Shown here: positions 37,905-64,000 of the stretch, one piece after another
How positions within the stretch are numbered: position 1 is the first letter of the stretch
Layout: every line of letters starts with the position of its first letter
Assembly: GCA_947053455.1 (NCBI GenBank)
Contig: CAMRSV010000001.1
Span: 177,010 to 241,009 of the forward strand
Direction of reading: 5' to 3'
DNA from: an uncultured Alphaproteobacteria bacterium
GTDB lineage: Bacteria; Pseudomonadota; Alphaproteobacteria; Rs-D84
DNA: 64,000 nt
Notes under the pieces: generated by a model
Seen by the model: only the letters and a program-made list of their open reading frames with translations
Database searches by the model: none
What the model was told of the DNA's origin: nothing
Position numbers and translations under genes: made by a program

Positions 37905-37965
37905 ATATATGCGGCGCGGCAAGCCACGCAATAAAATCCGGCAAATCATGAACAAAGGATAGCAA

Positions 37966-38628
37966 ATGAAATTTTTGCAAAAAAAACTATCATCAAACAG
38001 AAAACACGTACGCGTTCTGCTATTTGGAATAAGAGTTTTTAGTTACAAGGCAAAGAACACCGCTGAAAATGTCGTTGGCAACGGAAATGTTGTACAATTA
38101 CCCAAGAATTCCATGATTACTGTTTATATTCGCGGCAATAACAATCGCGTGATTGTCGAAGAGACTACGCACAACCCAGGATTTGCCATAACCCTTTTCG
38201 CCGGGACAGAACCGGTGAACAATTGTACCGTGCATATTGGAAAAAATTTTAGTGTTGGATCCGGCGAAATCCGCATATGCGAAGACAACACGATAGTTGA
38301 AATCGGCGACGATTGTATGTTTAGTGACGATATCAAGCTTTTCGCATCGGATACACACACAATACTGCGGGACGGAAAAGTTTCAAACATTGGCAAACAT
38401 ATTAAAATCGGCAACCATGTATGGTTGGGGCATGGGGCGACGGTGTTGAAAAACACAACAATCCCAGATAACAGTATAGTGGGCGCACGTTCTGTTGTCG
38501 TGGGTATGATACGCGAAAACGGGTCGATTATTGCCGGAAATCCTGCGCGCGTTATTCGCGATGGTGTAAATTGGGACAGACGCTGTCCGAAACAATATAT
38601 GGCGCAAGAGGACGTATCGGCCAATTAA
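37966..38628 (+). CDS. Hexapeptide-repeat (left-handed beta-helix) acyl/acetyltransferase
   Basis: Hexapeptide repeats are present (IGNHVWLGHGATVLKNTTIPDNSIVGARSVV). This is typical of polysaccharide O-acetyltransferases. Confidence 0.75.
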   Translation: MKFLQKKLSSNRKHVRVLLFGIRVFSYKAKNTAENVVGNGNVVQLPKNSMITVYIRGNNNRVIVEETTHNPGFAITLFAGTEPVNNCTVHIGKNFSVGSGEIRICEDNTIVEIGDDCMFSDDIKLFASDTHTILRDGKVSNIGKHIKIGNHVWLGHGATVLKNTTIPDNSIVGARSVVVGMIRENGSIIAGNPARVIRDGVNWDRRCPKQYMAQEDVSAN

Positions 38629-44057: not shown

Positions 44058-45275
44058 TTATTCGTACCGCAGACTGTCAATTGGGTTTAATTTTGCCGCC
44101 TTTAGCGCGGGGAACACACCGGATGCAAGCCCTACAACAACCGCGACTGTAACTGACACCATTACCGGCCAAATACTAAACGGCACATTATATCCCAGCA
44201 CAAGACGCCCAATTCCCTGGGACAGCCCGACCCCAATCAGCAATCCTGCCATTGAACCGATAAATGAAATCAGTATAGATTCAGACAGAAATTGAATTAT
44301 AATCTGACGTTCGCGCGCACCAATTGCCTTGCGGATACCGATTTCGCGCGTGCGTTCTGCAACCGATACCAGCATCATATTCATAATGCCGATTGCACCA
44401 ACCAGCAAGGACACCGCTGCGATCGCAATCAGCAGCAGTTTAAGGTAACCCGTTACGGTGTTCATTGTTTCCATTATTTGTTTCATATCCATGATTTGAA
44501 AATCGTCTACTGCGTCGTCCTTTAACTTGTGCCGGTCACGCAGCAGTGCGGTAATCTGTTCAATCGCCAGCGTGTTGTCCGCATCGGGATAAAGTTTTAG
44601 TGCAATCATACTGACCGCGTTGGGAAAACGGCTGCCCTGTAGACGTTTTTTTAGTGTGGTTATGGGAATTATCACAATGTCGTCCTGGCTGCCCATGGCG
44701 GAATCGCCCTTGGCCTTGGTTACGCCTATGATTACAAACGGCGTGTTTTGAACGCGGATAATTTCGCCAACCGGATTTGTAGACATGCCTAATTCTTCGG
44801 CTGTTTTCGGGCCGATTATGGCATATGTGGATGCGTTTCGGACGGCGGATTGGTCAAAGAATGTTCCGTATTCAATTTCAATATTTTGAACAATTGTATA
44901 ATCTGGATACACGCCAACCATGGATGACGCCCAGTTCTTGTTTCCATAAATAATTTGTGCTGCGCTGTTTTGAACGGGGGTCACCGCCATAACATCGGGC
45001 AGTTTTGCAATAAATTCCGCATCCTGTATCGTCAATGTTTGGCGGTTTCCGGTACGTACACCGGCACTTTGTGCAGCGCCGGCACGTATCATAATTGTAT
45101 TTGTACCCAGTGATGAAAACTGGTCGGTAATCTGCTTTTGCACGGTTTCACCGACCGCCACCATTATAACCACGGCCATAACGCCAATAACAATGCCCAG
45201 CACCGTTAAAAACGACCGCATTTTATTTCCACTGACCGACAGCCAGGATTCTTTTAATATGTCGCCCAAAGTCAT
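44058..45275 (-). CDS. macB: ABC transporter permease, MacB/FtsX family
   Basis: The N-terminal MacB periplasmic domain and a C-terminal FtsX four-TM domain are present. Confidence 0.88.
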   Translation of the reverse strand: MTLGDILKESWLSVSGNKMRSFLTVLGIVIGVMAVVIMVAVGETVQKQITDQFSSLGTNTIMIRAGAAQSAGVRTGNRQTLTIQDAEFIAKLPDVMAVTPVQNSAAQIIYGNKNWASSMVGVYPDYTIVQNIEIEYGTFFDQSAVRNASTYAIIGPKTAEELGMSTNPVGEIIRVQNTPFVIIGVTKAKGDSAMGSQDDIVIIPITTLKKRLQGSRFPNAVSMIALKLYPDADNTLAIEQITALLRDRHKLKDDAVDDFQIMDMKQIMETMNTVTGYLKLLLIAIAAVSLLVGAIGIMNMMLVSVAERTREIGIRKAIGARERQIIIQFLSESILISFIGSMAGLLIGVGLSQGIGRLVLGYNVPFSIWPVMVSVTVAVVVGLASGVFPALKAAKLNPIDSLRYE

Positions 45276-46009
45276 TTTTGCCCCCGTTCCAAAACACGTT
45301 CATCACGCGGGATTGACCCGTCATAATTTATCCGTCCGTCGCGGATATGTATCAGGCGACTTGCGTATTTTGCGATGTCGAATTCATGGGTTATCATGAC
45401 AATTGTGATGCCCATGTCGCGATTTAGCTGTTTTAAAAATGTCAGTATTTCATGACCCATTTTACTGTCCAGTGCACCGGTCGGTTCGTCCGCCAAAATC
45501 AGTTTTGGGTCGCCCGCCAATGCGCGCGCGATTGCGACACGCTGTTTCATGCCGCCGGACAATTGGTTCGGCAGATATGATTCAAACTTTTCAAGTCCGA
45601 CCCGCCGCAGCATTTCACGTGCACGTCGCACACGTTCGTCCATGGGCAGGCCGCGGTACATTAACGGCAACATTACGTTGTCTAGAACGCTGCGCTTTGA
45701 TAGTAGGTTGAACTGCTGGAACACGAATCCGATATACTCGTTTCTAATCACGGCCAGTTCGTCTGGCGTCATGTTGGCAATGTCGCGGCCATATAGTTCA
45801 TAAGTGCCACTGGTCGGTGTGTCCAGTGCGCCAATAATGTTCATGCATGTAGACTTTCCAGAACCCGACGGCCCCATGATTGCGACAAATTCGCCGGCGT
45901 GCACCTTGAATGTTATATCAAACAAAACCTGCTGTTGGCCGCCCATTTCCAGCGGGAAACTTTTGCAGATTTTATCCATTGAAATAACTATGTCCTGTGA
46001 TTTTGGCAT
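45272..46009 (-). CDS. ABC transporter ATP-binding protein (MacB/LolD-type ATPase)
   Basis: The Walker A reads GPSGSGKST, the ABC signature reads [15 protein letters not shown] and the Walker B reads [11 protein letters not shown]. The start was chosen at MPKSQ. Confidence 0.9.
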
Positions 46010-46025
46010 AATTTTTCCGTGTTTT

Positions 46026-47246
46026 CTAACGCGGGCCAGCGCCCATCGGGTTACCTGTACGTGATTTGTTATTATTGGTTGCACCTGTTGCGCCAACGCG
46101 TCCGGTTATTATTTTGTCGCCGTCGCGAATGTCGTCGGAAATTATTTCCGTTTCCGTCGCCGTTACCAAACCTTTTTGATACGGAACAAAGATAATATCA
46201 TTTTGTCCCGCGCGTTCAATCGCCAGATGTGTTTTTGGTGTTGCCGCACCCGGATTTTCGGTTATATTAGTAAATGTCCGCACCAGAAACGCGGAATTTG
46301 GTGCCTTGTATACGTCTTCTTTTTCTGATACGACAATCGTCACGAACGCGGTCATGCCCGGCATCAGTGACAAGTCCGAATTGTCCACGTCAATTACAAC
46401 CGTGTAAACAACGACGTTTGACGTTGTTGTTGGTGACAATCTTATCTGACGGACAACACCGTTAAATGTTTGTAGCGGATATGCGTCAACCGTGAATGTG
46501 ACGGGCTGGTTGTCCTTGATTACGCCAATATCTGCCTCTGATACGGCGGTTTCAATCTGCATTTTGGACAAGTCTTCGGCAATTTCGAACAAATCCGGCG
46601 TCTGGAAAGATGCGGCAACGGTTTGCCCATTATCAACCTTGCGCGAAATAACGGTACCGTCAACGGGCGACGTAATTGTCGCATACCCCAGATTGGTCAT
46701 TGCGCGTTCATATTGCGACTGCATGCGCAGAACGGATTGTTCCGCCTGTTCATACGTGGTTTGCGATTGTTCCATTTCCGCACGTGAAATAAATCCTTCT
46801 GCGTACAATGCTTTGTTGCGTTCATATTCGCTTTTTGCATAGTTGCGCTGGGACTCGGCACTGACCAAGGATGCCTTTGCTTCGTCCACCGACGCCTGCA
46901 GAACAGATGGTTCAATGGTAAGCAAGATATCGCCTTTTTTCACCTTGGAATTGTAATCCACAAACAGGCCGTTTATGGTGCCGGACACCTGGGAACCGAC
47001 GCTGACGGTGTTTACGGGCATTATTTCACCAGTGGCACTTACCACCTGACGCATGTCGCCGCGTGTGATTTTTACAGTCGAAAATTCTGATTTTTCCTTA
47101 TCTTCGCCGCCGCTAAATATCATTACAATCGCAACAATAACGGCGATTATTAAAAATAGCCATTTTTTGCGCCATATCCATTTGAACATGCGACGAATAA
47201 ACGACGGGCGAACCGTTGTCGTGTCAGTGGTTTTATTGTTCTTCAT
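46026..47246 (-). CDS. macA: HlyD/MacA-family periplasmic adaptor (membrane fusion) protein
   Basis: It has an N-terminal TM anchor, a coiled-coil hairpin and the beta-barrel and membrane-proximal domains of efflux adaptors. Confidence 0.85.
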   Translation of the reverse strand: MKNNKTTDTTTVRPSFIRRMFKWIWRKKWLFLIIAVIVAIVMIFSGGEDKEKSEFSTVKITRGDMRQVVSATGEIMPVNTVSVGSQVSGTINGLFVDYNSKVKKGDILLTIEPSVLQASVDEAKASLVSAESQRNYAKSEYERNKALYAEGFISRAEMEQSQTTYEQAEQSVLRMQSQYERAMTNLGYATITSPVDGTVISRKVDNGQTVAASFQTPDLFEIAEDLSKMQIETAVSEADIGVIKDNQPVTFTVDAYPLQTFNGVVRQIRLSPTTTSNVVVYTVVIDVDNSDLSLMPGMTAFVTIVVSEKEDVYKAPNSAFLVRTFTNITENPGAATPKTHLAIERAGQNDIIFVPYQKGLVTATETEIISDDIRDGDKIITGRVGATGATNNNKSRTGNPMGAGPR

Positions 47247-48573
47247 TCTCTATCTCCCGTGGTTCTGTAAGTCCTATGCGTATATCGCCTATGGCCAGGG
47301 CGACCGCCGCGCGTTTTGTAAATAAATCATATTTGGCGGCATTGTTTTGTTTCTGGGCGTCGACCAGTTCAGACTGCGCCGTCTGCCAATCAAGCATGGT
47401 GGCGCGGCCAACCTTGTACATACCGGCGGTTACGCGTTCGCTTTCTGTTGCGGATTTCAGCAGCGTTTCAGTTTGCTTTAAAACAGTTTGCGCTGTTTTA
47501 TAGTTTTGGTACGCTGTAAATATGTCCAAACTTGCGTTATCTTGGGCATATTTTTCTTGTTCTATTGCGCGTTCATAGTTCGCCTGCGCGGTGCGCACAT
47601 TATACATGTTCGCAAAGCCAGCAAATATCGGCATTGATGCGCGGATGCCGATGCTGCCGCTGACCTTATCGTTGCCGGCGTTAAAGCTTTCCGATGGCGT
47701 GTCGTTCCAAGAAACGCTGCCCGATGCGGATATGCTGGGCAAATTCGACAGGAACGATGAATTTCGCCGGTGCCATGCGGCATCCTTGTTTGCGGTCGCG
47801 CGCAGTAAATCCGGACGTGATGATTGCGCCATTTGAATCAGTTCGTCTACACTCTGCACCTCGGCTGCGCCACCAAATTCGGACGGCATGTCGGCGATTT
47901 CTATTTCCTGATTTGCTGGGAACGACAATTTAGACAGCAAGGTGCCCTTTGCGATTTCGCGGTTGTTTTTTGCACGTTCCAGTTCCAGTTCGCGACTGGC
48001 CAAGGTGGTGTCGGCCTTTAATACATCTGCCTTGGCGACCGAGCCCGCACGGAATTTTTTATCGGCCGTATCTTTGGCCGTTTTTGCAACAGTGCGAAGT
48101 GCGGTGGCAGACTTAACATCCGCATCCGCATTCAACAGATTGTAATATGCCCCGATAATGCCATAGACATAATTTTGAACGGTTTCATCATAGTCAAAAC
48201 CCGTCGCCCGCCAAACGGCCGCCAATTGATTCAGGTCGGATAAACGTTTTCCAAAATCGAATATCAAATAAGACGCGGATAGCGATGCACCTGTCGACCA
48301 TTCGCCCCACTTTTCATTGCGATAAGGCAGTGACGCCGATGCCGATGCATCAACCCGCGGCAGATAATTTGCATAACCCGCATTTTTGGAAAAGCGTGCG
48401 GCCTCGTACGATAAATATGCTGATGCGGTCTGTGGATTACGGCACAGTCCCAGATTTACAATTTCAGGTAATTTTAATTTCCCCGCTGGCACGGTCATAC
48501 GCGTTGCACAATCATCCGTTGCCGCAAATGCAACCCCTGGTATTGCACACAGCAATATCAATAACTTTTTCAT
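47233..48573 (-). CDS. tolC: TolC-family outer membrane efflux protein
   Basis: It has a signal peptide (MKKLLILLCAIPGVAFA) and two repeated alpha-helical/beta-barrel halves typical of TolC. Confidence 0.85.
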   Translation of the reverse strand: MKKLLILLCAIPGVAFAATDDCATRMTVPAGKLKLPEIVNLGLCRNPQTASAYLSYEAARFSKNAGYANYLPRVDASASASLPYRNEKWGEWSTGASLSASYLIFDFGKRLSDLNQLAAVWRATGFDYDETVQNYVYGIIGAYYNLLNADADVKSATALRTVAKTAKDTADKKFRAGSVAKADVLKADTTLASRELELERAKNNREIAKGTLLSKLSFPANQEIEIADMPSEFGGAAEVQSVDELIQMAQSSRPDLLRATANKDAAWHRRNSSFLSNLPSISASGSVSWNDTPSESFNAGNDKVSGSIGIRASMPIFAGFANMYNVRTAQANYERAIEQEKYAQDNASLDIFTAYQNYKTAQTVLKQTETLLKSATESERVTAGMYKVGRATMLDWQTAQSELVDAQKQNNAAKYDLFTKRAAVALAIGDIRIGLTEPREIENEEQ

Positions 48574-48674
48574 AAATCCCTCTCTACCCATGAAAATCAA
48601 TTTATGGACTTATTATACAATTTTTATGTTGAATTACAATTTTTTTTTGCCTAATATGCGTGTGCAAAAGCAAA

Positions 48675-50652: not shown

Positions 50653-51240
50653 ATGAAATCTTTATGCTTTTGTGCGTTTGCGGCGACATCTGCCATTTAT
50701 ATGCAAATCGCAAACGCAGCGATGAGTACATGTATGCAAAGCTTTGCATGTAGTGTGGGTAATTGCACTGTTTTAAACAGAGCTTCACTTAATTGTATTT
50801 CATACCATACGACGTATTATGAACCATATGGTGGTATTGAGAGTTGCGAGATATGTGAATCAGGGTATGCGCGGACAGAACGTTCTTTACAATTGGCGAC
50901 CGCATGTACCGCGACATATTATACCTGCGAAGAAATCTGTAACGGTTGCACAAATTGCGTCAGTGATACATCGTATAGTACCGTCGCCACCGGTTATGAA
51001 TTGATGGTAAAGCGGCAATGTTATTGTAATACGTGCAGTGAAACATATCTATTTCGTTGCGCCGCCGGATATTGGGGCAAGAGTACCAACGGAACATCCG
51101 GATGCAAGAAATGTCCAACGCCCGGCGTGTCGCCTGCGGGCGCGACAAGTGCCACACAATGCTATGTGGCGGCCGGCGTAAAAATGAACGATACAACCGG
51201 CGTTTATGAATTTACATCTGCGTGTTATAATTCAAATTAA
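50653..51240 (+). CDS. Secreted, extremely cysteine-rich protein of unknown function
   Basis: It has a signal peptide (MKSLCFCAFAATSAIYMQIANA) and about 28 Cys in 195 aa with repeated C-x-x-C and CxC spacing. No bacterial family was recognised. Confidence 0.55.
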   Translation: MKSLCFCAFAATSAIYMQIANAAMSTCMQSFACSVGNCTVLNRASLNCISYHTTYYEPYGGIESCEICESGYARTERSLQLATACTATYYTCEEICNGCTNCVSDTSYSTVATGYELMVKRQCYCNTCSETYLFRCAAGYWGKSTNGTSGCKKCPTPGVSPAGATSATQCYVAAGVKMNDTTGVYEFTSACYNSN

Positions 51241-54456: not shown

Positions 54457-55140
54457 TTATCGTGCGGGTGCAATCCGTAATTCAACACGCCGATTGGTAA
54501 GGCGGCCAATGTCATCCTGGGCGGCGATGGGACGCGCGGCGCCACGCGCGGCGATAAACATGCGTGCGGGTGTAATCCCGTGCGTGGCAAAAAACACGGC
54601 AATGCGCTGTGCCATATCCAGCGAAAGTGCGCCCGCCGCCTTTTGGTCGCGCATAGCGTCCGTGTAGCCCGCGATTTCAATGAATGTTGCGTCGTATTTT
54701 TTTAATATTTTTGCAATTATGTCCAAAGTGTTTGCGCCGGTGGCGGAAACCTCGGCTACGTTAAGTTCCATTATTGCATCGCGAACCAGTATAACGACGA
54801 CGTCTGTTCCGGCGCGCTGAACTGAAATGCCCGGTTTGCGCAACCCATCATAAAGCGCGTATTCCAAATTCGCCATGTACTTTAATGTAACTGCGTTATC
54901 GTTGGCAATCTTGTCCCCGTATTCGGTGGCAGCGTTCGTGTTCGCAATGTTTGTAACAATTTTTCCACCCGCCCCGAGATAAACCGGCCGCTTTGCAACG
55001 CGTGCCATTTCTGTCATGTCTGTAAAACTGGCCCCGGCTAGATGTTGCGGCCATGTTTGACGCGGCGGTGTACGGTATTGCGTGCATGCCGAAACGGCTG
55101 CAATCAAAAGAACCCGACAAGATAAATTAAACCAGCGCAT
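54457..55140 (-). CDS. OmpA/MotB-family lipoprotein
   Basis: It has a lipobox (AAVSAC). The C-terminal OmpA-like domain reads EIAGYTDAMRDQKAAGALSLDMAQRIAVF...NRRVELRI. Confidence 0.7.
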   Translation of the reverse strand: MRWFNLSCRVLLIAAVSACTQYRTPPRQTWPQHLAGASFTDMTEMARVAKRPVYLGAGGKIVTNIANTNAATEYGDKIANDNAVTLKYMANLEYALYDGLRKPGISVQRAGTDVVVILVRDAIMELNVAEVSATGANTLDIIAKILKKYDATFIEIAGYTDAMRDQKAAGALSLDMAQRIAVFFATHGITPARMFIAARGAARPIAAQDDIGRLTNRRVELRIAPAR

Positions 55141-55605
55141 TTATTTTACGATAAATGAAATCTCGTTTGTTTTTGTTTCAAAGCAATGTGATGCGGCCTC
55201 GTTCTCAAAACCGTTCACGCGCAGTGATGATACCCATTTTGGCACGGCCGTCGTGAAATATGCGCAGTCACTCTCGCTTAAGCCGACAAGTGTTATTTCA
55301 AATGATTTGCCGTCAACCGCAGATATTATCGACCATGCGTTTGTACCCAATGGTGCCGCGCCATTTTGTACCGCGTCTGACCCGGACTTTATCAGATAGT
55401 CAATCGACACGCCGTCATAAGAACCGCCTGTCTCCATCAGCATTTTTACGTCATTTGCGATTTCTTCAAGACGCGAAGATGCAATTTGACGACGCGTTGT
55501 ATTTTTTACCGTTTCATACATCTTGTATGCGCCCAATATCATCATGCCCGATATTGCAAGGACACCGACCACTTCTATTAAAGAACGCCCGCATTCTGAT
55601 TTCAT
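55141..55605 (-). CDS. Type IV pilin/pseudopilin-like protein (prepilin-type N-terminal signal)
   Basis: The N-terminus MKSECG|RSLIEVVGVLAISGMMILGAY has Gly at -1, Glu at +5 and a hydrophobic helix, which is the class III signal pattern. It abuts the OmpA-like gene and lies downstream of dnaX. Confidence 0.6.
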   Translation of the reverse strand: MKSECGRSLIEVVGVLAISGMMILGAYKMYETVKNTTRRQIASSRLEEIANDVKMLMETGGSYDGVSIDYLIKSGSDAVQNGAAPLGTNAWSIISAVDGKSFEITLVGLSESDCAYFTTAVPKWVSSLRVNGFENEAASHCFETKTNEISFIVK

Positions 55606-55620
55606 TTTTTGCCCCGTATT

Positions 55621-57195
55621 TTATTTTCCGACACTTATAATTTGTGCATCTTCAAACAGACTCATCGCGCTGGACACCATCGGGTCGGCCTCTAACTCGG
55701 CACGGTTTTGTTCGGTGATTGTTTGGGTGTTTTCCGATTTTTCTGCGCGCACTAGATGCCATGCGTGGCCTGTTTTTTCCAACAACCATTTAGCCAGTTT
55801 TGATGCAAAATCCGCATCGTTTGCACGATCGAAATATTTTATTTCGCCGTCTGAAAATTCCACAATCTCTATATTGCTGCTGTAATAGGAATAGAGCAGG
55901 ATTTCCTTTGCCGCCTGCAGTTTCGCGGCAAGTTCCGCGCCAGATGAAATCGTAACTGTTTCAGGTGTGCCCTTTGCCGATTCCGGATTTTTTGTATTCT
56001 CGCATGTGTCCGGTGTTTCGCGTGGTGTGGTTGTACGCGGTGCGGCTGTTGCGCCTTCGCGGCGTAATATTTCAGGCACCGACGGCAAATCCGCAATGTG
56101 CATCAATCGCACAACCAACATGTCAAAGCATTGCTTTTGATTCCCGGTTGCCTGCATTTCAGGTACGGCCGCAACCATAACCTGCCATATTCGCGACAGT
56201 GTATTAAGCGTTACATGGGAATTGATTTCGCGAATCTTATCGCGTTGATCTGCGGTGTACGGCGACGCATCGGCGTCGCCGGCCCGCAACGCCGGATGCA
56301 TACGTGTCGCCCAGTGTGTCCATTCCATCATATCGGTAAGCAACATTGCCAAATCCGCGCCGTTGTTATAAATTTGATCAACTTTGTTCAGCGCCGCCGC
56401 CGCGTCGCCGGACAGCAGCGTTTTCATCAGGTCGACAACCACGCCACGATCCGCGCGTTTTAGCATGTCAAGCACAGCGTTTTCATCAACCTTGCCGCCT
56501 GTTTGTGCGATTGCCTGATCCAACAATGACAATCCGTCACGAACCGAGCCATCCGCCGCCCGTGCCAGTAATTCGTTCGCCGCATCCGACAGTTCTATTT
56601 TTTCTTGTTCCGCAATCCATTTGAAATGTTTTTTTAATGTTTCAACTGGAACACGAACTAGGTCGAAACGCTGGCATCTGGACAGAATGGTTACCGGAAC
56701 CTTTCTTATTTCTGTTGTCGCCAGAATGAATATTACGTGGGCTGGTGGTTCCTCTAATGTTTTTAGCAGGGCGTTGAATGCACTGGTCGATAACATGTGG
56801 ACTTCGTCGATTATATAAACCTTGTACCGGCCATTTGTCGGGCGGTACTGCGCCGCGTCAAGAATATCGCGCATATTGTCAACGCCCGTGTGGGACGCGG
56901 CGTCGATTTCCATTACGTCAATATGTTGGCCACTGGCGATTGCGCGACAATTTTCGCATACGCCGCACGGTGTGGCCGTTGCCCGGTCGCCCGACAGGCA
57001 GTTTAACGCCTTGGCCAGGATTCGCGCAGTACTGGTTTTTCCGGTGCCGCGAATGCCGGTAAATATATATGCGTGTGCAATGCGCGATGTGTTTATCGCA
57101 GTCGTCAGGGTTTTGACCAGAACATCCTGGCCGATAAGGGATTGAAAATCTTGGCTGCGGTATTTTCGGGCCAAAACAGTGTAATTGCTATCCAT
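55621..57195 (-). CDS. dnaX: DNA polymerase III subunit gamma/tau
   Basis: An AAA+ clamp-loader module (GIRGTGKTSTARILAKALNC) and a Zn module (CGVCENC) are present. At 524 aa it is shorter than the E. coli tau subunit. Confidence 0.92.
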   Translation of the reverse strand: MDSNYTVLARKYRSQDFQSLIGQDVLVKTLTTAINTSRIAHAYIFTGIRGTGKTSTARILAKALNCLSGDRATATPCGVCENCRAIASGQHIDVMEIDAASHTGVDNMRDILDAAQYRPTNGRYKVYIIDEVHMLSTSAFNALLKTLEEPPAHVIFILATTEIRKVPVTILSRCQRFDLVRVPVETLKKHFKWIAEQEKIELSDAANELLARAADGSVRDGLSLLDQAIAQTGGKVDENAVLDMLKRADRGVVVDLMKTLLSGDAAAALNKVDQIYNNGADLAMLLTDMMEWTHWATRMHPALRAGDADASPYTADQRDKIREINSHVTLNTLSRIWQVMVAAVPEMQATGNQKQCFDMLVVRLMHIADLPSVPEILRREGATAAPRTTTPRETPDTCENTKNPESAKGTPETVTISSGAELAAKLQAAKEILLYSYYSSNIEIVEFSDGEIKYFDRANDADFASKLAKWLLEKTGHAWHLVRAEKSENTQTITEQNRAELEADPMVSSAMSLFEDAQIISVGK

Positions 57196-57274
57196 GCTTG
57201 AAACTTCCTTTGCCCACAGGATAGCAAACCCCTGTTAAATTTCAACAATTAAAAAGATTAAATCTGGCGATGTT

Positions 57275-57562
57275 TTATTTCAGGTTTTCAACGAATTCCG
57301 GGAACGGTTCTTCTTCGTCTGCGGCATCAACCGGTTGTTCTGCGATTGGTGTTTTGTCGGCCGGCGTGCGTGTCGAATCAATCTTTCCCTGTTCGCTGCT
57401 GACCATGCGGCCATAATGTTCGGCCGACTGCAGCAGGCGTTCGCGGTCAATTTCATCCGCGGTTTGACGTGCCTGGTCAATAAGTTGTTTGCGTTTTTGG
57501 CGCCATTTGTGACACCGCTGAATCATCATCCCGACAGAGGATTGGTTTTTTTTGTTTTGCAT
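57275..57562 (-). CDS. DUF4167-like small basic protein conserved in alphaproteobacteria
   Basis: It has an Arg/Lys-rich N-terminus and the LLQSAEHYGRM block, which resembles the DUF4167 motif YLQHAEHYFR. The C-terminus is acidic. Confidence 0.45.
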   Translation of the reverse strand: MQNKKNQSSVGMMIQRCHKWRQKRKQLIDQARQTADEIDRERLLQSAEHYGRMVSSEQGKIDSTRTPADKTPIAEQPVDAADEEEPFPEFVENLK

Positions 57563-57709
57563 GTTTTTTCTTTGTTAACAGGAAATATATTTAATGCCGG
57601 ATTATACCGCCATCGTTTCTTTAACAGTCGCAATAATAGTTTATCGGAAAACCAATTGCAATATTTTTTTTCAATTGCTATTCTACAAATATGTAGGAGG
57701 GAAGCCATA

Positions 57710-59068
57710 TTGCATTATTCGCGTGGGAATTTTTTATTGCAGGCGCTGCTGGCATTGTCGGTGGTGTTTGCAATTGTGCCGTTTCTGACGATGCGAATGA
57801 CCAACAGTGCATCCGATGCAAAAATGTTTTCCGCCACGCAACAGGCGAATGTGGCAGCCACAGCCGCACGAATTTTTATCCGTGAAAACGCAAAAAATAT
57901 TCCGTACGATACCGTTGTTGTTGCAGGTGACGAGTTTGGTGATTTGTTGGAACCTTATGGATTGCCATTGGGGTTTGTACCGCGGACAAGTCTGGGACAG
58001 AATATCGCGCTTGTCATCGAAAACGACAATGGCGAAATTTCTGCACATTTGGAATTGACGGGTGGGAATTTAAGTCGGCTTGCGAGAGCCGAACTGGCGC
58101 GGCGCATTGGTTTTTATGCGGTGCCGACGGCAGATGGCGTTAATGTTGGAATTGCGCTGGAGAATATGTATTCAGATATTGTGCGTCGTAATGAACCAGA
58201 TGTCGACAATAACGAATTTTTAACCAATTTGGACATGGGGGGATTTGTGTTTGAGGACGCCGGCCGTGTTTTTGCCGCCCGCGGTGATTTTGAAACGGGC
58301 GTGTTTGACACATTAGCGGTGACCGGCGTAGAAAACGGCCGAAAAATAAGAAATACAATTAATCGGATGGCCGCAACAAAAACAGTTTTCCAAAGTAAAA
58401 CCGGCGAGGCTGCACTATCTTTGACGCGTGGCACCCTAAATGCAGCCACAGTCGGGGCACGTACGGTTTCAAAATTTGGCGATACGGGCAATTTTACCGG
58501 GCGGGTGGCATCGGTCTATGATTTTTCAATGACGGCCGGGCGTACCAGTTTTTCCGGACCAAAAGATTGGAAAGTGCGCGGAAATATGATTGCGGACAAA
58601 ATAAACTTTTCCGTCGATAGAATAGATATATCATCATCTATAAATGCTGCCCGTGGCCAGGATGTTTACATATACACCGACGAATTGGAATACAGCGCCC
58701 GCAGCGGTATAGAGGCGTCTTATTTGGCGGTGTCAAATATCACGTTGCGCGACCAGACGTCAGATGCGTTGCTGCGCGGGGAAGATGGTGCGGTCGTGAT
58801 TGACATACGTCCGGCCGATGTGTCTGTTTTGCCGGATGTTTTGCTCGATTCCATAGACAATGGTTCTTTTAAAATTATTTCGCGCCCATCGGCCGATGAT
58901 GGTAAAACCGTTGACTGTAAAAGTATTATTTCCGCAATTGGCGGTGTGGTATATAATCAAAAATCGCTGGCGCAGAATATAATATGCCAGTATGTATTTT
59001 GGCAGCGTTTGGAACAAAGAATAGATATTAAACAATGCTTGATGGCCGGCGGGACAAATTGTGACTAG
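57710..59068 (+). CDS. Large pilin-like/pseudopilin-like protein, paralog 1 (prepilin-type N-terminus)
   Basis: It has a TTG start with an AGGAGGG ribosome-binding site. The N-terminus (M)HYSRG|NFLLQALLALSVVFAIVPF is followed by about 420 aa with no family assigned. It shares the L-x-M-GG-x block (NLDMGGFVFEDAGRVF) with the next two genes. Confidence 0.5.
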   Translation: MHYSRGNFLLQALLALSVVFAIVPFLTMRMTNSASDAKMFSATQQANVAATAARIFIRENAKNIPYDTVVVAGDEFGDLLEPYGLPLGFVPRTSLGQNIALVIENDNGEISAHLELTGGNLSRLARAELARRIGFYAVPTADGVNVGIALENMYSDIVRRNEPDVDNNEFLTNLDMGGFVFEDAGRVFAARGDFETGVFDTLAVTGVENGRKIRNTINRMAATKTVFQSKTGEAALSLTRGTLNAATVGARTVSKFGDTGNFTGRVASVYDFSMTAGRTSFSGPKDWKVRGNMIADKINFSVDRIDISSSINAARGQDVYIYTDELEYSARSGIEASYLAVSNITLRDQTSDALLRGEDGAVVIDIRPADVSVLPDVLLDSIDNGSFKIISRPSADDGKTVDCKSIISAIGGVVYNQKSLAQNIICQYVFWQRLEQRIDIKQCLMAGGTNCD

Positions 59069-60266
59069 AACGACGATTTTTTTCAATGAAACACTTGGCG
59101 CCAGCATGCTGGAGGTGATTCTTGCGCTGGCGATTGTGGCTGTGGCATCACCCTTTGTATACAATAAAATAATACAGACGAACCATGATATTGAAAACAT
59201 GGTGCGTGCCCGTGATATTGCCGCGTTGCGCAGTCCTGTCTTGAATTTTGTTCGTATAAACCAGGACAAGTGGCCCGAAACAGCCCAGATTAAACTGTCG
59301 GATGCGGAATTGGATGAAATATCTGACACTGCCACGGCGGCGTTTGTTGACAAGTATTCTGTCCGTGGGGCGGCCGTGGCGGATGTTTATATTTCGTTTG
59401 ATGCGGAAAATCCGGTTCGTGCAAACCGTATTGTGCGCTATATCGGTGCTGATGCGGCTGTTGTTGGTGACGACGGCGTGGCGTATTCCGACACGTGGGC
59501 GGTGGCGGCTCCTGATTTTAAGACTGGAAACATTATATACAGAATATCGCGTGCGACTGCGGATGACGACAAGACAAAATATTTGCATCGCGCATCGTCT
59601 GGCGATGACGGCCTTAACATCATGATGCGTGATTTGCGAATGGGTGGATATAATGTATTGAATGTTGGACGGGTTGTGGCGTCATCCGCCAAGGTGGGCG
59701 ATGTGTCAACGTATTTTGTGGCCTCTGATGATGTTATGGCGAACAATGCCTATTTTTCAAATGGCGCAAATATGGATGGTTCAAATGTTTCGGTCGGCGA
59801 AATGCAGGTTTCGGGTGATATAACCGGCTTTAGAAATATTTATGCAGACAATTTGAACGGTGGCGCATTTACAACACGGGGGCGTGTTATTGCAGATCGT
59901 GCAACAGTGACAAATTCAGTTAACGTTGGCGGAAATTTTTCTTTGAAATCAAGCACTACGCGTACAATTAGCGGTTTTACCACCATAGAGGCGCATTCGG
60001 TTGCGACGCCATATATTTCAGTGGAAGAAATGACTTTTATTGAAAAGGTGGGACTTACCGTGTCTGGGGAATTGATGGTATCGACAACGCCGCCATTAAA
60101 GATAGGCAGCTGGGTCTTTCCGTCAACCAGCGCGCCGCGCTTTGCTGATTTTTCATTATCACGCGCCGAGATTCCAGATACGCCCACCACAGACGAGTTT
60201 GATATATTGTTTCACGCCGGATGGCGTGCATATAATCCAGATAATCTAGAGGGGACGCAACTATGA
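59061..60266 (+). CDS. Large pilin-like/pseudopilin-like protein, paralog 2
   Basis: It has a GTG start overlapping the upstream stop. The N-terminus NETLG|ASMLEVILALAIVAVASPFV has Gly at -1 and Glu at +5. It carries the shared block DLRMGGYNVLNVGRVV. Confidence 0.55.
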   Translation: MTRTTIFFNETLGASMLEVILALAIVAVASPFVYNKIIQTNHDIENMVRARDIAALRSPVLNFVRINQDKWPETAQIKLSDAELDEISDTATAAFVDKYSVRGAAVADVYISFDAENPVRANRIVRYIGADAAVVGDDGVAYSDTWAVAAPDFKTGNIIYRISRATADDDKTKYLHRASSGDDGLNIMMRDLRMGGYNVLNVGRVVASSAKVGDVSTYFVASDDVMANNAYFSNGANMDGSNVSVGEMQVSGDITGFRNIYADNLNGGAFTTRGRVIADRATVTNSVNVGGNFSLKSSTTRTISGFTTIEAHSVATPYISVEEMTFIEKVGLTVSGELMVSTTPPLKIGSWVFPSTSAPRFADFSLSRAEIPDTPTTDEFDILFHAGWRAYNPDNLEGTQL

Positions 60267-61585
60267 AAAAAGCGCGCACCATGTTTTCCATGACAGGTTG
60301 CAAAACCTCGCAACGTGGCAGTATGTTGGTTGAAATGCTGCTGTCGGTGGCGTTGGCGGCAATAATTATTCCATTTGTTTTCAGGTATCAGCATAACGTA
60401 ATTGCCCGCGCAAAAAATATTGAGGTCGCACAGCGAATGGAAACGGTTCAAACTGCGCTGGAACGGTATATTGTCGAAAATCGTGCCTCTTTGCTAAATA
60501 CAGTTGGGCGTAATATAACGCGTGTTCAGCTTGCCGATTTGGTGCCCTATGGTCTGCCGGAAGATATATTGAATTCATCGGCCGAATATCAATTGCGTAT
60601 TTTGAAATCAAATGATGTTGGCACTCAGTCAACCCTACAGGGGGTGGTTGTAATGTCCGATGCCAATATCACGCCGCTGCGCACGCGTGAAATTGTAATG
60701 ATGGGCGGAAATAATATGGGATTTATTGAGGGGCGGCATGCATATGGTGCATTTGGCGCATGGCGTTCAGATACGGTTGACCTGGGACTCGGCGGCGCCC
60801 AGGGCATTGTGGGTTCAACCGGTGTTAATCGCGATAACGCGCTGTATTTATGGCGTGTACCGTCAAATGACGCGGACGATGCGACAATGATGTCGGCGTT
60901 AAATCTGGGTGGCCATGATATAGAAAACGCCAGTTTCTTTGATGTTTCCAATGTTAATTTTAGCGAAAATATGCATTCGGGGACACTTGTTGCGTCCAAT
61001 ATTATTTTTCAAAATCGCACGACAATAGACACCACGTTTGAAACAAAATCGGCGCGCGTGGCGGGTGCATTGTCGGCTGATTCGCGCACAATGGAAATTT
61101 CAGGGGCGCTAAAGTTGGATGATTTGGGAAAGTTTTCTAGTTTTTCGGTCGAAGATTTGTGGGTCGGCAATCTATCTCTTTCGGGGCTGACGGTAAACAG
61201 TGATGAAGATGTCGCGAACTTGAAAATAAATCAGACCTTGGATATGACCGGGGGGCGGATAAGCGCGCTGTACGCAACCGTTGGTTTTTCCGGTTCGATA
61301 ACACCGCGTCTGGTTGTAACTAACCTTATTGAAGATTCAATTAACCCGGAATATTTTTGGGATGCAGACTGGCGCGCGGCACATTTTTTTGATGTGTCTT
61401 TTCCGAATCTGAACGATATGGCGACCCGCGCCGTAGCCCGCGAAGGTGATAAATCCACCGCATCATCGCAGTTGTTCGGTGCGGTTGTTGCAAACAAAAA
61501 TGCAACCGCGGCGGATTTTATGAACGCATTGTTAGAAATTGAATCACGCGTTCGTGCGAAATATCGCCTGTTGAATTTGGAATAA
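60263..61585 (+). CDS. Large pilin-like/pseudopilin-like protein, paralog 3
   Basis: The N-terminus QRG|SMLVEMLLSVALAAIIIPFV has Gly at -1 and Glu at +5 and is clearly similar to paralog 2. It carries the shared block ALNLGGHDIENASFF. It overlaps the upstream gene by 4 nt. Confidence 0.55.
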   Translation: MKKARTMFSMTGCKTSQRGSMLVEMLLSVALAAIIIPFVFRYQHNVIARAKNIEVAQRMETVQTALERYIVENRASLLNTVGRNITRVQLADLVPYGLPEDILNSSAEYQLRILKSNDVGTQSTLQGVVVMSDANITPLRTREIVMMGGNNMGFIEGRHAYGAFGAWRSDTVDLGLGGAQGIVGSTGVNRDNALYLWRVPSNDADDATMMSALNLGGHDIENASFFDVSNVNFSENMHSGTLVASNIIFQNRTTIDTTFETKSARVAGALSADSRTMEISGALKLDDLGKFSSFSVEDLWVGNLSLSGLTVNSDEDVANLKINQTLDMTGGRISALYATVGFSGSITPRLVVTNLIEDSINPEYFWDADWRAAHFFDVSFPNLNDMATRAVAREGDKSTASSQLFGAVVANKNATAADFMNALLEIESRVRAKYRLLNLE

Positions 61586-61605
61586 TTTGTGGTATAAGTG
61601 AAGAT

Positions 61606-62121
61606 ATGAAAATAAAATGTGACTTTTGCAAGACGGAATATGCGCTGGATAAAGTTCAGGGGGGCGCCGTCAAATGCGCGGTTTGTGGCCATGTGTGGAA
61701 CGTAACGGTGCCCGCACGGCGTAATGCGTTTTTGACATTTGTTGCGGCGTTGTGCGCGCTGCTATCGGCGATTGTATTTGCGGTCGCGGTGGTCGCGTCG
61801 CATCATTCGGATGCGCGGGATGTGCGGCCGTTGGTGGCACGTGTTTCACAAATTCGCACAACGACAGATGACGCGGGGGTTGCCCACCTGACGGTTGACG
61901 GCGCGATTGTTAACCAGTCTGATGATATATATGGCGTCCCGGATTTGATAATTGTTTCACGGGACAAGAACGGAAATGAAATCGCGCGACAAAAATTTAT
62001 GCCGTCGGCAACGCTGCTGTCGCCGGGGGCGGTGGCGCCGTTTTCCCATACACTTGCGGCGCCTGCTGTGGGTGTTCACCGGGTGACGATTGAAATGCCG
62101 GACATAGGGGGGATGATATGA
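61606..62121 (+). CDS. MJ0042-type zinc-ribbon membrane protein (DUF3426-like architecture)
   Basis: An N-terminal Zn ribbon CDFC...CAVCGH is followed by one TM helix and a periplasmic beta-rich domain. Confidence 0.5.
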   Translation: MKIKCDFCKTEYALDKVQGGAVKCAVCGHVWNVTVPARRNAFLTFVAALCALLSAIVFAVAVVASHHSDARDVRPLVARVSQIRTTTDDAGVAHLTVDGAIVNQSDDIYGVPDLIIVSRDKNGNEIARQKFMPSATLLSPGAVAPFSHTLAAPAVGVHRVTIEMPDIGGMI

Positions 62122-62582
62122 AGCGCTTTGGCCTGTTATTGTTTTATGTGTTTTTCTGCGCTGCCCACGCCGCAGATGAGAAGCCCGTTGTCCGCCGTGT
62201 CAGTATTTTTTCCACCAGCACCGACTGGGAGGCTGTGACAGGTCTGCAATTGTCGGAATACAAGGGAAAATTTATAACAGATTCAAAACTGGTTGGTAAT
62301 AAGGGACTAGTTTTATATTATCTGGACGGGTTTCCGTGCTATGGCCTGGGCGAGGGGGTGCGTGTCTGGATTGACCCAAAGGGTCGTGCCGACAATGATT
62401 TAAGGATAGTATGTCTGCGTCCGCCAAAGGAGATAAATTTTGCATGGCGCAATATGGCAAACGATGGTGTGCAACGGGCGACGACGGGGCTTTTGCGGTG
62501 TCCAGTATCAGACGATGGTCGTGATTTAACAATTGATTTGAAAAAATGTGCCAAGGGTCCTGATTGGCCGGAATATGAATAG
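62118..62582 (+). CDS. Hypothetical secreted protein
   Basis: It has a signal peptide (MKRFGLLLFYVFFCAAHA). It overlaps the upstream gene by 4 nt. No family was assigned. Confidence 0.45.
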   Translation: MKRFGLLLFYVFFCAAHAADEKPVVRRVSIFSTSTDWEAVTGLQLSEYKGKFITDSKLVGNKGLVLYYLDGFPCYGLGEGVRVWIDPKGRADNDLRIVCLRPPKEINFAWRNMANDGVQRATTGLLRCPVSDDGRDLTIDLKKCAKGPDWPEYE

Positions 62583-62596
62583 ATGGGATTTTTAAA

Positions 62597-63550
62597 ATGC
62601 GGCGTGAATTTATTGTGACGGATGGTGATGCGGGTATACGCTTGGATAAGTTTCTATCGGCGCAAATGCCGGAATTTTCACGCAGTGAAATCCAAAAGTT
62701 TAAAGTTTCACAAGGCGATGTGCCGGTCAAAATGTCGACGCGTATTCGTGCAGGTGACGTGTTCTGTGTTGATGTGGTAACGGTTGCGTCCGATGTGGCG
62801 TCGGATAATGTTTCATCGGATTTCGATTTGGATATTTTGTTCGAAGACGATGACATAATTGTCGTAAACAAACCGCGTGGTGTTGTAATGTACCCATCGG
62901 CCGGGAACAAAACCGGGACACTGGTTCAAAATATTTTGGCGCATACAAATTTGTCTGCGCTTGGCGGGGCGACGCGCCCGGGTGTGGTTCACAGATTGGA
63001 TAAAGATACCAGTGGCGTCATGGTTTTTGCAAAATCCGACGCGGCATACCGCAATCTGGTAAAAATATTTTCCACGCACGATTTAACGCGTAAATATATA
63101 GCATTTGCATGGCATGTCCCAAATTGGACAGAGGCCGACATAACCGGAAACATCGCCCGTTCGTCACGTAATCGCCAGAAAATGAGTATGGTAAAATCCG
63201 GGGGCAAGCCCGCCCAGACATCTGTCGCCGTAATGAATGCGTGGCCGCGTGCGGGTGTTACTGAATTTAGATGCACACTTTTTACCGGGCGTACACACCA
63301 GATTCGCGTTCACTTGTCGGCGCATGGGTTCCCGGTGCTGTGTGACCCACTCTATGGGCGCGGCGCGGGGAATTTGGGCAGTGTTCGCGACCCGGATTTA
63401 CTGGAATTTCTAAAAACACACAATGGCCAAATGCTGCATGCCGAGGTGTTAGAGTTTACTCATCCCACGACCGGCGTGCAAATGCGCTTCAAATCGCATT
63501 TACCAGATGATATGGCAGAACTAAAATGCATACTGGACGATATTGGTTAA
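62597..63550 (+). CDS. rluD: 23S rRNA pseudouridine synthase, RluD family
   Basis: An S4-like N-terminus is followed by the catalytic motif HRLDKDTSGVMVFAKS and the RluA-family C-terminal blocks. Confidence 0.88.
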   Translation: MRREFIVTDGDAGIRLDKFLSAQMPEFSRSEIQKFKVSQGDVPVKMSTRIRAGDVFCVDVVTVASDVASDNVSSDFDLDILFEDDDIIVVNKPRGVVMYPSAGNKTGTLVQNILAHTNLSALGGATRPGVVHRLDKDTSGVMVFAKSDAAYRNLVKIFSTHDLTRKYIAFAWHVPNWTEADITGNIARSSRNRQKMSMVKSGGKPAQTSVAVMNAWPRAGVTEFRCTLFTGRTHQIRVHLSAHGFPVLCDPLYGRGAGNLGSVRDPDLLEFLKTHNGQMLHAEVLEFTHPTTGVQMRFKSHLPDDMAELKCILDDIG

Positions 63551-63631
63551 TTTGAATCAAATTCTGTTATTATTTATTTGTCTGAATTTAATTTTATGAT
63601 ATAATAAAGTAATAATAATGGAGTGAGTCTA

Positions 63632-64000
63632 ATGCATTTGTTTACAAAATCGGTTGGTTTTTTGGCTGTTTTGGGGCTGTTTCCTGCGGCGTTTGCGGTA
63701 ACGGCACGCCCCAGCATGGTAACGACCGCCGGCGCACGTTTGCCGACAATGGCGTCACGTTTGCCGACGACTACAACCACTACCACCACATCCAGTTTAT
63801 TAAGTGATATTGAGTGCATTGACTCATACACCCAATGCATCAAGGGCGTGGACGCCTGCGATAGTGATTTTAGCGAATGCACAAACAAGGTATTGTTCCA
63901 CGCCAAGATGCCGCAGTGTATCAGCACACTGGCACAGTGCAGCGCAGCGGGTATTTCTTCGCTGTTTGGAACAAATTCTGTCCCGTCATTGTCGGCGGTT
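63632..64000 (+). CDS. Secreted Thr-run and Cys-rich protein, N-terminal part; the ORF continues past the window end
   Basis: The start has a GGAG ribosome-binding site. It has a signal peptide (MHLFTKSVGFLAVLGLFPAAFA), then a run of 8 Thr, then a Cys-rich region (CIDSYTQCIKGVDACDSDFSECTNK). No stop codon occurs before position 64000. Confidence 0.4.
   Translation, partial: MHLFTKSVGFLAVLGLFPAAFAVTARPSMVTTAGARLPTMASRLPTTTTTTTTSSLLSDIECIDSYTQCIKGVDACDSDFSECTNKVLFHAKMPQCISTLAQCSAAGISSLFGTNSVPSLSAV

Follow-up and report, generated by a model that had tools for sequence, protein, structure and literature searches.

PilV proteins, minor pilins of 410–460 aa that double as tip adhesins of the IncI/R64 type IVb thin pilus, form the closest characterised family to the proteins analysed here. 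Two other groups of minor pilins are relevant. TcpB of Vibrio cholerae and CofB of ETEC are type IVb minor pilins that reportedly initiate pilus assembly and form a trimeric tip, while GspK and PilX are minor (pseudo)pilins that lack Glu at position +5 and cap their filaments. PilV is an adhesin that chooses target cells, and in TP114 it comprises a 345-aa constant part followed by 69–113 variable residues (PMC9045228). ZitP of Caulobacter crescentus (CC_2215), which combines a zinc ribbon, a transmembrane segment and a DUF3426 domain, is needed for Tad pilus assembly, and pilus biogenesis depends on its DUF3426 part (PMC5182063).

Genomes of Candidatus Enterousia, a gut alphaproteobacterium, and its relatives (order Rs-D84) measure ~0.7–1 Mb and lack most biosynthetic pathways (PMC12306168). 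Below, we discuss a locus within a 64-kb window (the whole stretch of Candidatus Enterousia DNA that was analysed) that probably carries the genes for the filament subunits of a thin, type IVb-like pilus, with three PilV-like proteins (A, B and C) forming an initiation and tip complex on a filament of a small pilin (S).

Gene organization and conservation of the locus

The genes of the locus are listed in Table 1. Their coordinates and features, as given in a sequence-only reading of the same DNA, held on re-checking, and independent gene calls on identical public contigs again yield trio products of 452, 401 and 440 aa. Gene A starts with TTG, 8 nt past an AGGAGG. Genes A and B overlap by 8 nt, B and C by 4 nt, and Z and X by 4 nt, with Z beginning 20 nt after C. 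Gene S lies 15 nt downstream of dnaX and directly abuts the OmpA-family lipoprotein gene downstream of it (0-nt gap), an adjacency that is kept in the loci L001, L090 and L091. Judged by position alone, this lipoprotein is possibly an accessory or anchor protein; no similarity was found between it and the R64-type PilL lipoprotein. A promoter and terminator scan gave nothing informative.

Table 1. Genes of the locus and one further gene of the window, with window coordinates
Feature	Position	Strand	Product
Gene A	57710-59068	+	452 aa, PilV-like large minor pilin, first in trio
Gene B	59061-60266	+	401 aa, PilV-like large minor pilin, GTG start
Gene C	60263-61585	+	440 aa, PilV-like large minor pilin
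Gene S	55141-55605	-	154 aa, PilS/TcpA-like (type IVb class) pilin, candidate major subunit
Gene Z	61606-62121	+	171 aa, ZitP-like bitopic zinc-ribbon membrane protein
Gene X	62118-62582	+	154 aa, secreted Cys-containing protein, no family match
OmpA-family lipoprotein gene	54457-55140	-	Peptidoglycan-binding lipoprotein; PF00691 E = 3.8e-12; YiaD-like 2.1e-24
VirD4/TraG gene	9439-11661		Coupling protein

The cluster is surrounded by the housekeeping genes dnaX, lpxD, fabZ and rluD in a very stable synteny, and its position among them is unchanged in at least 80 species. Distant S homologs share the same gene context. Local GC at the cluster (0.47–0.49) equals the window average.

An orthologous, collinear trio is also found in L092 (E = 7e-63 for A and 7e-47 for B) and in L094–L097, while L093 carries a trio with Shufflon_N matches; the trio recurs in unrelated lineages with GC contents of 30, 38 and 64%. 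In the distant GC 30% loci L095 and L097, Z and X are close to the trio and the order Z-X-RluD is kept.

Prepilin-type signals and paralogy of A, B and C

All four pilin-like proteins begin with a prepilin-type motif (↓, predicted cleavage site): G↓NFLLQ in A, where it follows a 6-aa leader (MHYSRG), G↓ASMLE in B, G↓SMLVE in C and G↓RSLIE in S. In orthologs from ~80 species of Candidatus Enterousia, position +5 holds Glu in 82/82 C, 72/72 S and 77/79 B proteins and Gln in 76/76 A proteins. Gly-1 and Glu+5 of B, C and S are invariant or near-invariant even in lineages that are ~25–30% identical. Protein A lacks Glu+5 in Enterousia, L094 and L097, but Gln+5 is not universal, since the L092 ortholog has Glu. 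When all six frames of the window were searched with a regular expression for the signal (G-x4-[EQ] and then 12 or more hydrophobic residues), only four ORFs matched, namely A, B, C and S. Because of this result and the conservation of position +5 in orthologs, the prepilin-type signal is beyond chance.

A, B and C are paralogous, though by sequence comparison only remotely so: BLASTP aligns B with C at E = 3e-5 over 243 aa and A with C at E = 5e-7 over 84 N-terminal aa, and A with B at 0.018. Protein A has four Cys close to its C-terminus. The prepilin-type N-termini (Gly-1, Glu or Gln at +5 and a hydrophobic helix), the paralogy of the trio and the type IV pilin-like nature of its members, all proposed in the sequence-only reading, are each supported by these results, the N-termini being kept across ~80 species.

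Kinship of the trio to PilV

Profile comparisons show A, B and C to be remote homologs of PilV (Pfam PF04917, Shufflon_N) and ancient collinear paralogs. Against the PilV family, hhalign gives probabilities of 95.8% (E = 7.5e-9) for A, 98.0% (E = 1.7e-13) for B and 99.6% for C. With the N-terminal helix trimmed, the values are 90% (E = 1.6e-6), 96.6% (E = 6e-10) and 99.2%, respectively, as against 0.1–0.3% for control families. A profile of the C family, searched against 1.84e9 representative sequences, finds 386 proteins in all, and every one of these family clusters is at present annotated as hypothetical. The matches include P0257, P0270, P0280, P0291 and P0292 (E = 3.5e-13 to 7.8e-10), which Pfam places firmly in PF04917 (E = 3e-25 to 4e-69); an annotated plasmid pilV is 45% identical to P0280. 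A bridging protein, P0187, is a full-length relative of C (E = 1.9e-68) and bears PF04917, and Shufflon_N is matched by 13 of 63 distant family members. A third search for homologs, with the profile of a distant member, yielded no more than two proteins.

The motif LYR..P.LN.M.T.IDMGGN.I.NA is common to the trio and PilV. The internal L-x-(M/L)-GG block that had been noted earlier is real and can now be identified as this PilV signature. The length of ~420 aa, earlier called atypical, turns out to be normal for PilV/Shufflon_N members (410–460 aa; IncK PilV has 411 aa).

Direct family scans are silent: a Shufflon_N HMM scan of A, B and C gives no match even at E ≤ 1, Pfam and NCBIfam scans of the three give no usable match, and precomputed Pfam annotations of the Enterousia orthologs show none. 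When profiles of the C and PilV families are run against PDB sequences, they find the generic pilin N-terminal helix only (e.g. Geobacter PilA-N). We rejected a TadG or GspK identity for A, B and C, as neither Pfam nor NCBIfam gives a T2SSK or TadE (PF07811) match at E ≤ 1; the sole likeness to GspK is the missing Glu+5 of A. Among the tip-protein options raised previously, adhesin-carrying pilins come nearest, whereas the TadG-like and GspK-like ones fall away with no TadE, T2SSK or GSP match at threshold.

A model of gene C's product predicts a pilin head, a β-solenoid and a C-terminal helical region, with a pLDDT of only 55–60 in the β-solenoid part; Foldseek with this model finds nothing significant. 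A first AF2 model, built from 35 close homologs, reached a pLDDT of 56.7, and its Foldseek matches in the PDB were noise. We know of no solved PilV-like structure for comparison. The adhesin-like β-helix fold, modelled at low confidence, is the one hint, an indirect one, of a place in the pilus and an adhesin role.

A PilS/TcpA-like pilin and a ZitP-like membrane protein

Profile comparison also suggests that S is a pilin of the PilS/TcpA class (type IVb), with the window protein itself under the Pfam cut-offs for N_methyl (E = 0.0037; 17.2 bits, cut-off 21.2 bits) and PilS (PF08805; E = 0.026; 15 bits, cut-off 22 bits). Its orthologs match N_methyl in 21/25 cases and PF08805 in 15/25 (best 3.3e-5), hhalign aligns S with IncK PilS at 91.9% probability (E = 6.8e-7) over 135 columns, and a PDB search finds TcpA at E = 0.0033. 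The Cys114-Cys141 pair is invariant in orthologs. Unlike classical type IVb pilins, S has a short leader (6 aa, as in A) and a small mature protein (148 aa), and some sources name its homologs type II secretion protein, GspH or PilE. The sequence-only reading was right to place a small pilin gene near the trio and to call both pilin-like, but overlooked the homology of the trio to PilV and the probable homology of S to PilS.

Z consists of a cytoplasmic MJ0042-type zinc ribbon, one transmembrane segment and a periplasmic DUF3426-like domain, and these predicted domains show it to have the ZitP architecture. It matches Zn_ribbon_4 above the cut-off (E = 8.8e-8; 32.4 bits, cut-off 30.3) and DUF3426 below it (E = 5.6e-4). 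Among Z orthologs, 11/12 match Zn_ribbon_4 and 8/12 match DUF3426 at E ≤ 0.01 (best 2.7e-6). Both Z and ZitP are alphaproteobacterial and share the N-terminal CxxC...CxxC zinc ribbon (PF13717/PF13719), the single transmembrane segment and the periplasmic DUF3426 region, but Z is much shorter (171 aa versus 311 aa), and Caulobacter ZitP has a Tad (type IVc) pilus as its partner, by way of CpaM and CpaC. X, which has no Pfam or NCBIfam match, is found in 82/82 loci and is always paired with Z. A zinc-ribbon membrane protein and a secreted protein do follow the trio as had been described, although the ZitP-like nature of the former had been missed.

Comparison with described minor pilin systems

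The trio and PilV (that of IncI1, IncI2 and IncK plasmids, with R64, R721 and TP114, and also that of PAPI-1 and Salmonella Typhi) both have a class-III signal with Gly-1 and Glu+5, protein A with its Gln at +5 excepted. They are alike in length (400–460 aa), have a PilS-like pilin alongside, and share homologous N-terminal regions of ~200–250 residues that close with the LYR...LN.M.T.IDMGGN.I.NA motif, past which both are rich in β-strands (Bactofilin and FapA solenoid matches in relatives). Their identity is only ~21–23%, under the Pfam threshold. Plasmid PilV is a single gene with shufflon-switched 3′ ends, an Rci recombinase and sfx repeats, whereas Enterousia has three fixed, ancient paralogs with neither recombinase nor repeats. 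The Enterousia C-termini are conserved where those of plasmid PilV vary, and the trio is chromosomal, sits amid housekeeping genes in a reduced genome and lacks adjoining pilL-pilU machinery or tra genes.

A shufflon was rejected, as positions 55000–63700 contain no sfx-like repeat family and no recombinase, the flanks are likewise without them, and the C-termini are conserved across species. Conservation across species is even along the A, B and C proteins, and a hypervariable adhesin tip was rejected on this uniformity, there being no variable receptor-binding end as in plasmid PilV.

TcpB and CofB resemble the trio in being large minor pilins (>400 aa) in which β-rich C-terminal domains come after a pilin domain, and in having a type IVb major pilin as partner (here the candidate S, with its TcpA match). 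They share no detectable sequence similarity with it, the PDB searches having found the generic N-terminal helix only, and they are single genes whose products form homotrimers, where three paralogs would, by analogy, make a heterotrimer. Our model of an initiator and tip complex is borrowed from these proteins. The priming complexes GspI-J-K of type II secretion and FimU-PilVWX of type IVa pili are likewise built from several minor (pseudo)pilins that are co-transcribed and include one member without Glu+5 (here A). There is no homology to T2SSK, GspI or GspJ, however, and the Enterousia members are all large and mutual PilV-type paralogs, with an A ortholog in L092 that keeps Glu+5.

Assembly machinery and alternative explanations

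The sequence-only reading reported no type IV filament machinery in the window, and this is borne out more widely: an ATPase, a platform protein, a prepilin peptidase and a secretin are all absent from the window and from the DNA within 10 kb of the cluster in ~90 loci. IncK PilL-PilU gave no tblastn match in the window and 82 loci, T2SSE and secretin motif expressions found nothing over 1.8 Mb of loci (±10 kb around the cluster), and contigs extending a few kb past the window add non-pilus genes only. One published Rs-D84 genome survey reports type IV pilus genes only in another lineage (PMC12306168), and Holosporales with reduced genomes often have only part of a type IV pilus gene set (PMC9992710).

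These absences and both papers would fit a situation in which A, B, C and S keep a pilin fold but, orphaned, no longer make a filament, the type IV machinery having been lost in these reduced genomes. They would then be anchored in the inner membrane and span the periplasm or envelope, with the helix as a plain signal anchor, perhaps acting with Z in polarity or envelope organization. The stable housekeeping neighbourhood and the even, housekeeping-like conservation, with no diversifying tip, point the same way. We nevertheless consider this unlikely. Gly-1 and Glu+5 stay near-invariant in B, C and S, and it is difficult to see why a charged residue would be kept within a membrane helix if not for pilin–pilin packing and peptidase recognition. 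The small PilS-like S is retained and equally conserved, and the absence of machinery covers only ±10 kb around the cluster. That the genes supply GspK/TadG-like pseudopilins or tip proteins to type II secretion or a Tad (type IVc) pilus, instead of a type IVb pilus, is improbable. This reading would account for A lacking Glu+5 as GspK does, for sub-threshold NCBIfam matches (S to GspJ and PRK10557, a C ortholog to GspG), for S homologs being sometimes named 'type II secretion system protein' or 'GspH family', and for the action of ZitP with a Tad pilus. Against it, the T2SSK, TadE and GSP families all stay under threshold, the weak GSP matches are confined to the generic N-terminal helix, S, whose 154 aa include a disulfide-bonded globular domain, does not resemble Flp, and the profile-profile matches are specific to PilV and PilS/TcpA.

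It is more improbable still that pilS and pilV were left behind from the thin-pilus operon of an integrated IncI-like conjugative element, even though the closest characterised family is plasmid-borne and the window holds a VirD4/TraG coupling protein gene. No recombinase, sfx-like repeats or tra genes are nearby, GC is not locally deviant, and identity to plasmid PilV is low. The unchanged housekeeping position in at least 80 species and the orthologous trios in lineages of such different GC attest to a deep vertical conservation, because of which this origin is largely refuted.

A putative attachment pilus and its significance

For the type IVb-like thin pilus that we favour, we propose that a prepilin peptidase encoded elsewhere would cut A, B, C and S after Gly-1. 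By analogy with the minor pilins above, A, B and C would form a heterotrimer by way of their N-terminal helices; this complex would prime S polymerisation and remain at the tip, with A, lacking Glu+5, on top, as GspK and PilX are. The β-solenoid and the helical region predicted for the C-terminal parts would be exposed there and serve as an adhesive tip of fixed sequence, by which the bacterium attaches to a partner cell or to the surface of a host, and three hard-wired paralogs would replace the PilV variants that IncI plasmids make by DNA inversion. The role of Z and X may be to place or support the apparatus at the envelope, in the way that ZitP serves the Tad pilus of Caulobacter. A more far-reaching version, which we regard as rather doubtful, holds that A-B-C is an ancient, hard-wired heterotrimeric PilV tip module that forms, with Z and X, the cell-attachment organelle of obligately partner-dependent, sub-megabase alphaproteobacteria. 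Its assembly would perhaps be minimal or non-canonical, for example sharing components with the type IV secretion system to which the VirD4/TraG coupling protein of the window belongs, with classical machinery absent from the genomes.

The PilV family and its size are known; what is new is a fixed chromosomal trio without nearby assembly genes, a variant not previously described. It extends the PilV/Shufflon_N family well beyond plasmids to a chromosomal, vertically inherited three-paralog form, which implies that adhesin diversity can be encoded by fixed paralogs instead of DNA inversion. Through kinship with PilV, ~386 hypothetical clusters gain an annotation. Candidatus Enterousia and its Rs-D84 relatives are thought to depend on other cells (PMC12306168). 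The IncI plasmid relatives of the trio are adhesins that choose target cells in the gut, and universally conserved pilus subunits with three PilV-like proteins would be the most obvious candidate for the structure with which these bacteria contact their partners.

A, B and C are PilV-family paralogs

The three tandem large prepilin-like proteins, A, B and C, returned no match when scanned directly against Pfam and NCBIfam. An exhaustive search of 1.84 billion representatives with a C-family profile recovers a small family of 386 clusters, every one starting with a G-x4-E signal, with lengths of ~430, ~500-650 or ~1000-1200 aa. Thirteen of 63 distant family members match Pfam PF04917 (Shufflon_N; best 4e-69), the domain of PilV, the IncI/R64 type IVb minor pilin and tip adhesin. 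The C profile recovers five bona fide PF04917 members (P0257, P0270, P0280, P0291 and P0292; Pfam E = 3e-25 to 4e-69), with E-values of 3.5e-13 to 7.8e-10; one of them, P0280, shares 45 % identity with an annotated plasmid pilV product (‘shufflon system plasmid conjugative transfer pilus tip adhesin’). PF04917 is also present in P0187, a full-length relative of C (E = 1.9e-68). The members of ~1000-1200 aa (P0248, P0258, P0302 and others) share the N-terminal module and carry extra C-terminal regions without Pfam domains.

Profile-profile comparison (hhalign) with a PilV alignment scored 95.8 % for the A family (E = 7.5e-9), 98.0 % for B (E = 1.7e-13) and 99.6 % for C (E = 1e-23) at full length, and 90 %, 96.6 % and 99.2 %, respectively, with the transmembrane helix removed; control families built from the neighboring Z, X and S proteins scored 0.1-0.3 %. 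The A, B and C alignments terminate at the PilV signature LYR..P.LN.M.T.IDMGGN.I.NA, whose counterparts are IVRRNEPDVDNNEFLTNLDMGGFVFEDA in A, YLHRASSGDDGLNIMMRDLRMGGYNVLNV in B and YLWRVPSNDADDATMMSALNLGGHDIENA in C. The L-x-M-GG block reported in the sequence-only reading is this motif. The same reading considered the proteins atypically large, which does not hold: PilV proteins span 410-460 aa (IncK PilV is 411 aa, and TP114 PilV comprises 345 + 69-113 aa; PMC9045228), so family membership accounts for the lengths of A, B and C.

The AlphaFold2 model of C, computed from 48 sequences (pLDDT 71.4), predicts a pilin fold at residues 20-190, with a long alpha-1 helix packed against a sheet (pLDDT 80-93), followed by a series of short strands at residues 200-350 (pLDDT 55-60) and three helices at residues 380-436 (pLDDT 80-89).

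Prepilin signals and the small pilin S

A six-frame regex search of the 64-kb window for the prepilin signal matches exactly four ORFs: A (MHYSRG/NFLLQ), B (...ETLG/ASMLE), C (...SQRG/SMLVE) and the small divergent pilin-like gene S (MKSECG/RSLIE). Position +5 is occupied by Gln in 76/76 orthologs of A and by Glu in 77/79 of B, 82/82 of C and 72/72 of S; Gly-1 and a Pro ~18 residues further on are also kept, although overall ortholog identity drops to ~55 %. Both results agree with the prepilin-type N-termini originally described. A, B and C are PilV-family paralogs that have kept their class-III signals intact and are conserved by vertical descent.

S itself falls under the Pfam cut-offs (N_methyl E = 0.0037, PilS E = 0.026), and its orthologs match N_methyl in 21 of 25 cases and PF08805 (PilS) in 15 of 25. 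Hhalign aligns S with IncK PilS at 91.9 % probability over 135 columns, a PDB search finds TcpA (E = 0.0033) with a match reaching beyond the helix, and two Cys are invariant. On these grounds S appears to be a pilin of the PilS/TcpA class, yet with a short leader and a small size.

Gene neighborhood

Adjacent genes overlap by 8 nt (A/B), 4 nt (B/C) and 4 nt (Z/X), with a gap of 20 nt between C and Z; independent gene calls on identical public contigs yield the same products. Z shows a zinc ribbon above cut-off, a transmembrane segment and DUF3426 (8/12 orthologs), which together make up the architecture of ZitP. In Caulobacter, ZitP acts through CpaM and CpaC in Tad pilus biogenesis, for which its DUF3426 part is required (PMC5182063). 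Z and the secreted protein gene X may be functionally linked to the trio, or their proximity to it may be no more than retained synteny.

Coordinates of the locus, other window features and loci elsewhere
Feature	Sequence	Coordinates	Strand	Remarks
A	window	57710-59068	+	452 aa; TTG start, AGGAGG 8 nt upstream
B	window	59061-60266	+	401 aa; GTG start
C	window	60263-61585	+	440 aa
Z	window	61606-62121	+	171 aa
X	window	62118-62582	+	154 aa
rluD	window	starts 62597	+	
dnaX	window	55621-57195	-	
S	window	55141-55605	-	154 aa; 15 nt after dnaX
OmpA-family lipoprotein	window	54457-55140	-	abuts S; then skp, lpxD, fabZ
Small basic Gln/Lys-rich protein	window	57275-57562	-	divergent from A
Cys-rich secreted protein with Thr run	window	63632-64000	+	1043 aa; runs off window
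Same, complete	L084	11036-14167		
Very Cys-rich secreted protein	window	50653-51240	+	195 aa; no Pfam family
VirD4/TraG-type coupling protein	window	9439-11661	+	740 aa
PagL-like lipid A 3-O-deacylase	window	13720-14343	+	PF09411 E = 1.6e-11
MacB-MacA-TolC efflux or secretion operon	window	44058-48600	-	
GC dip	window	35952-38628		GC 0.38 vs ~0.48 elsewhere
Hexapeptide-repeat acetyltransferase-like ORF	window	37966-38628		within GC dip
Three-gene PilV-like module	L092	374-4587		
Three-gene PilV-like module	L093	3-3477		
Three-gene PilV-like module	L094	6924-11578		
Three-gene PilV-like module	L097	2911-7326		
Lipoprotein	L092	5832-7163	+	443 aa; downstream of trio, after efp

The remaining window genes are housekeeping (mutS, truB, rpoH, ileS, accBC, mreB, metG, fabDG, mnmG, der, pnp, gyrB, macAB-tolC and recF). 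Isolated among them is the coupling protein (PF02534 E = 2.8e-47, with TraG-D_C and TrwB_AAD_bind); its presence implies that this reduced genome encodes a type IV secretion system. The PagL-like deacylase and the MacB-MacA-TolC operon are likewise retained despite the small genome. The GC dip, which also holds a 650-aa ORF without a Pfam match, possibly represents an island for surface modification gained by lateral transfer. The small basic protein has a sub-threshold DUF4167 match and is conserved in 76 loci, with public gene callers starting it later (84 aa). Directly downstream of rluD, the 1043-aa protein, which has no Pfam domain, is found at the equivalent site in the relatives' loci L001, L090 and L091, where its length is 1039-1046 aa, and a second Cys-rich secreted protein of 407 aa follows on the opposite strand.

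Distribution and age of the trio

Homologs of C number more than 1000, none of them named, all in animal-gut alphaproteobacterial MAGs. A scan of species-representative genomes gave 80 loci, many titled Candidatus Enterousia, the closest 89 % identical; in one relative the cluster lies on a 716,531-bp chromosome record. Enterousia belongs to the order Rs-D84, with genomes of ~0.75-1 Mb and a proposed dependence on partner cells (PMC12306168). The order fabZ-lpxD-skp-ompA-S-dnaX / A-B-C-Z-X-rluD is kept throughout the relatives' loci.

Trios also occur in unrelated lineages. L092 (GC 38 % contig) has a collinear trio whose genes are one-to-one orthologs of A, B and C (A-g1 E = 7e-63, B-g2 7e-47, C-g3 6e-52), and L093 (GC 64 %) and the metagenome contigs L094-L097 (GC 30 %) bear trios as well. 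In L095 and L097, 3 kb and ftsEX separate the trio from downstream Z-like, X-like and rluD genes, and the +5 residue of the first gene is Gln in L094 and L097 and Glu in L092. From this spread, the triplication appears to long predate Enterousia. The lipoprotein downstream of the L092 trio, which MacB/FtsX-type ABC genes follow, was considered as a PilN-like secretin lipoprotein and rejected: it has no such similarity and no Pfam or NCBIfam match.

A putative fixed tip complex

The locus combines a PilS-like pilin with three PilV-family paralogs. Type IV filament machinery is absent from the 64-kb window, as first noted, and neither PilL-PilU homologs nor T2SSE, A24 or secretin motifs were found within 10 kb of the cluster in ~90 loci (1.8 Mb in total). 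The main rival reading is that this machinery has been lost and that A, B, C and S fill another envelope role; the invariant Glu+5 speaks against it. We favor a working filament, in which the class-III signals of the four proteins would be processed by a peptidase encoded elsewhere.

A, which lacks Glu+5, is likened to GspK/PilX, and TcpB/CofB tips are trimeric; by analogy, A, B and C could assemble into a heterotrimer that primes the filament and forms its tip, with A at the apex. Neither sfx-like repeats nor a recombinase was found at the cluster, and conservation along A, B and C is flat, leaving no hypervariable end. In the gut, IncI pili select their target cells through the adhesin PilV (PMC9045228), and type IV pili have been proposed as attachment devices in extracellular Rickettsiales. 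The observation of large tandem prepilin-like proteins is itself confirmed, and the locus is a variant of the known PilV-type pilin set, one that would provide a fixed adhesive tip attaching the bacterium to partner or host cells.
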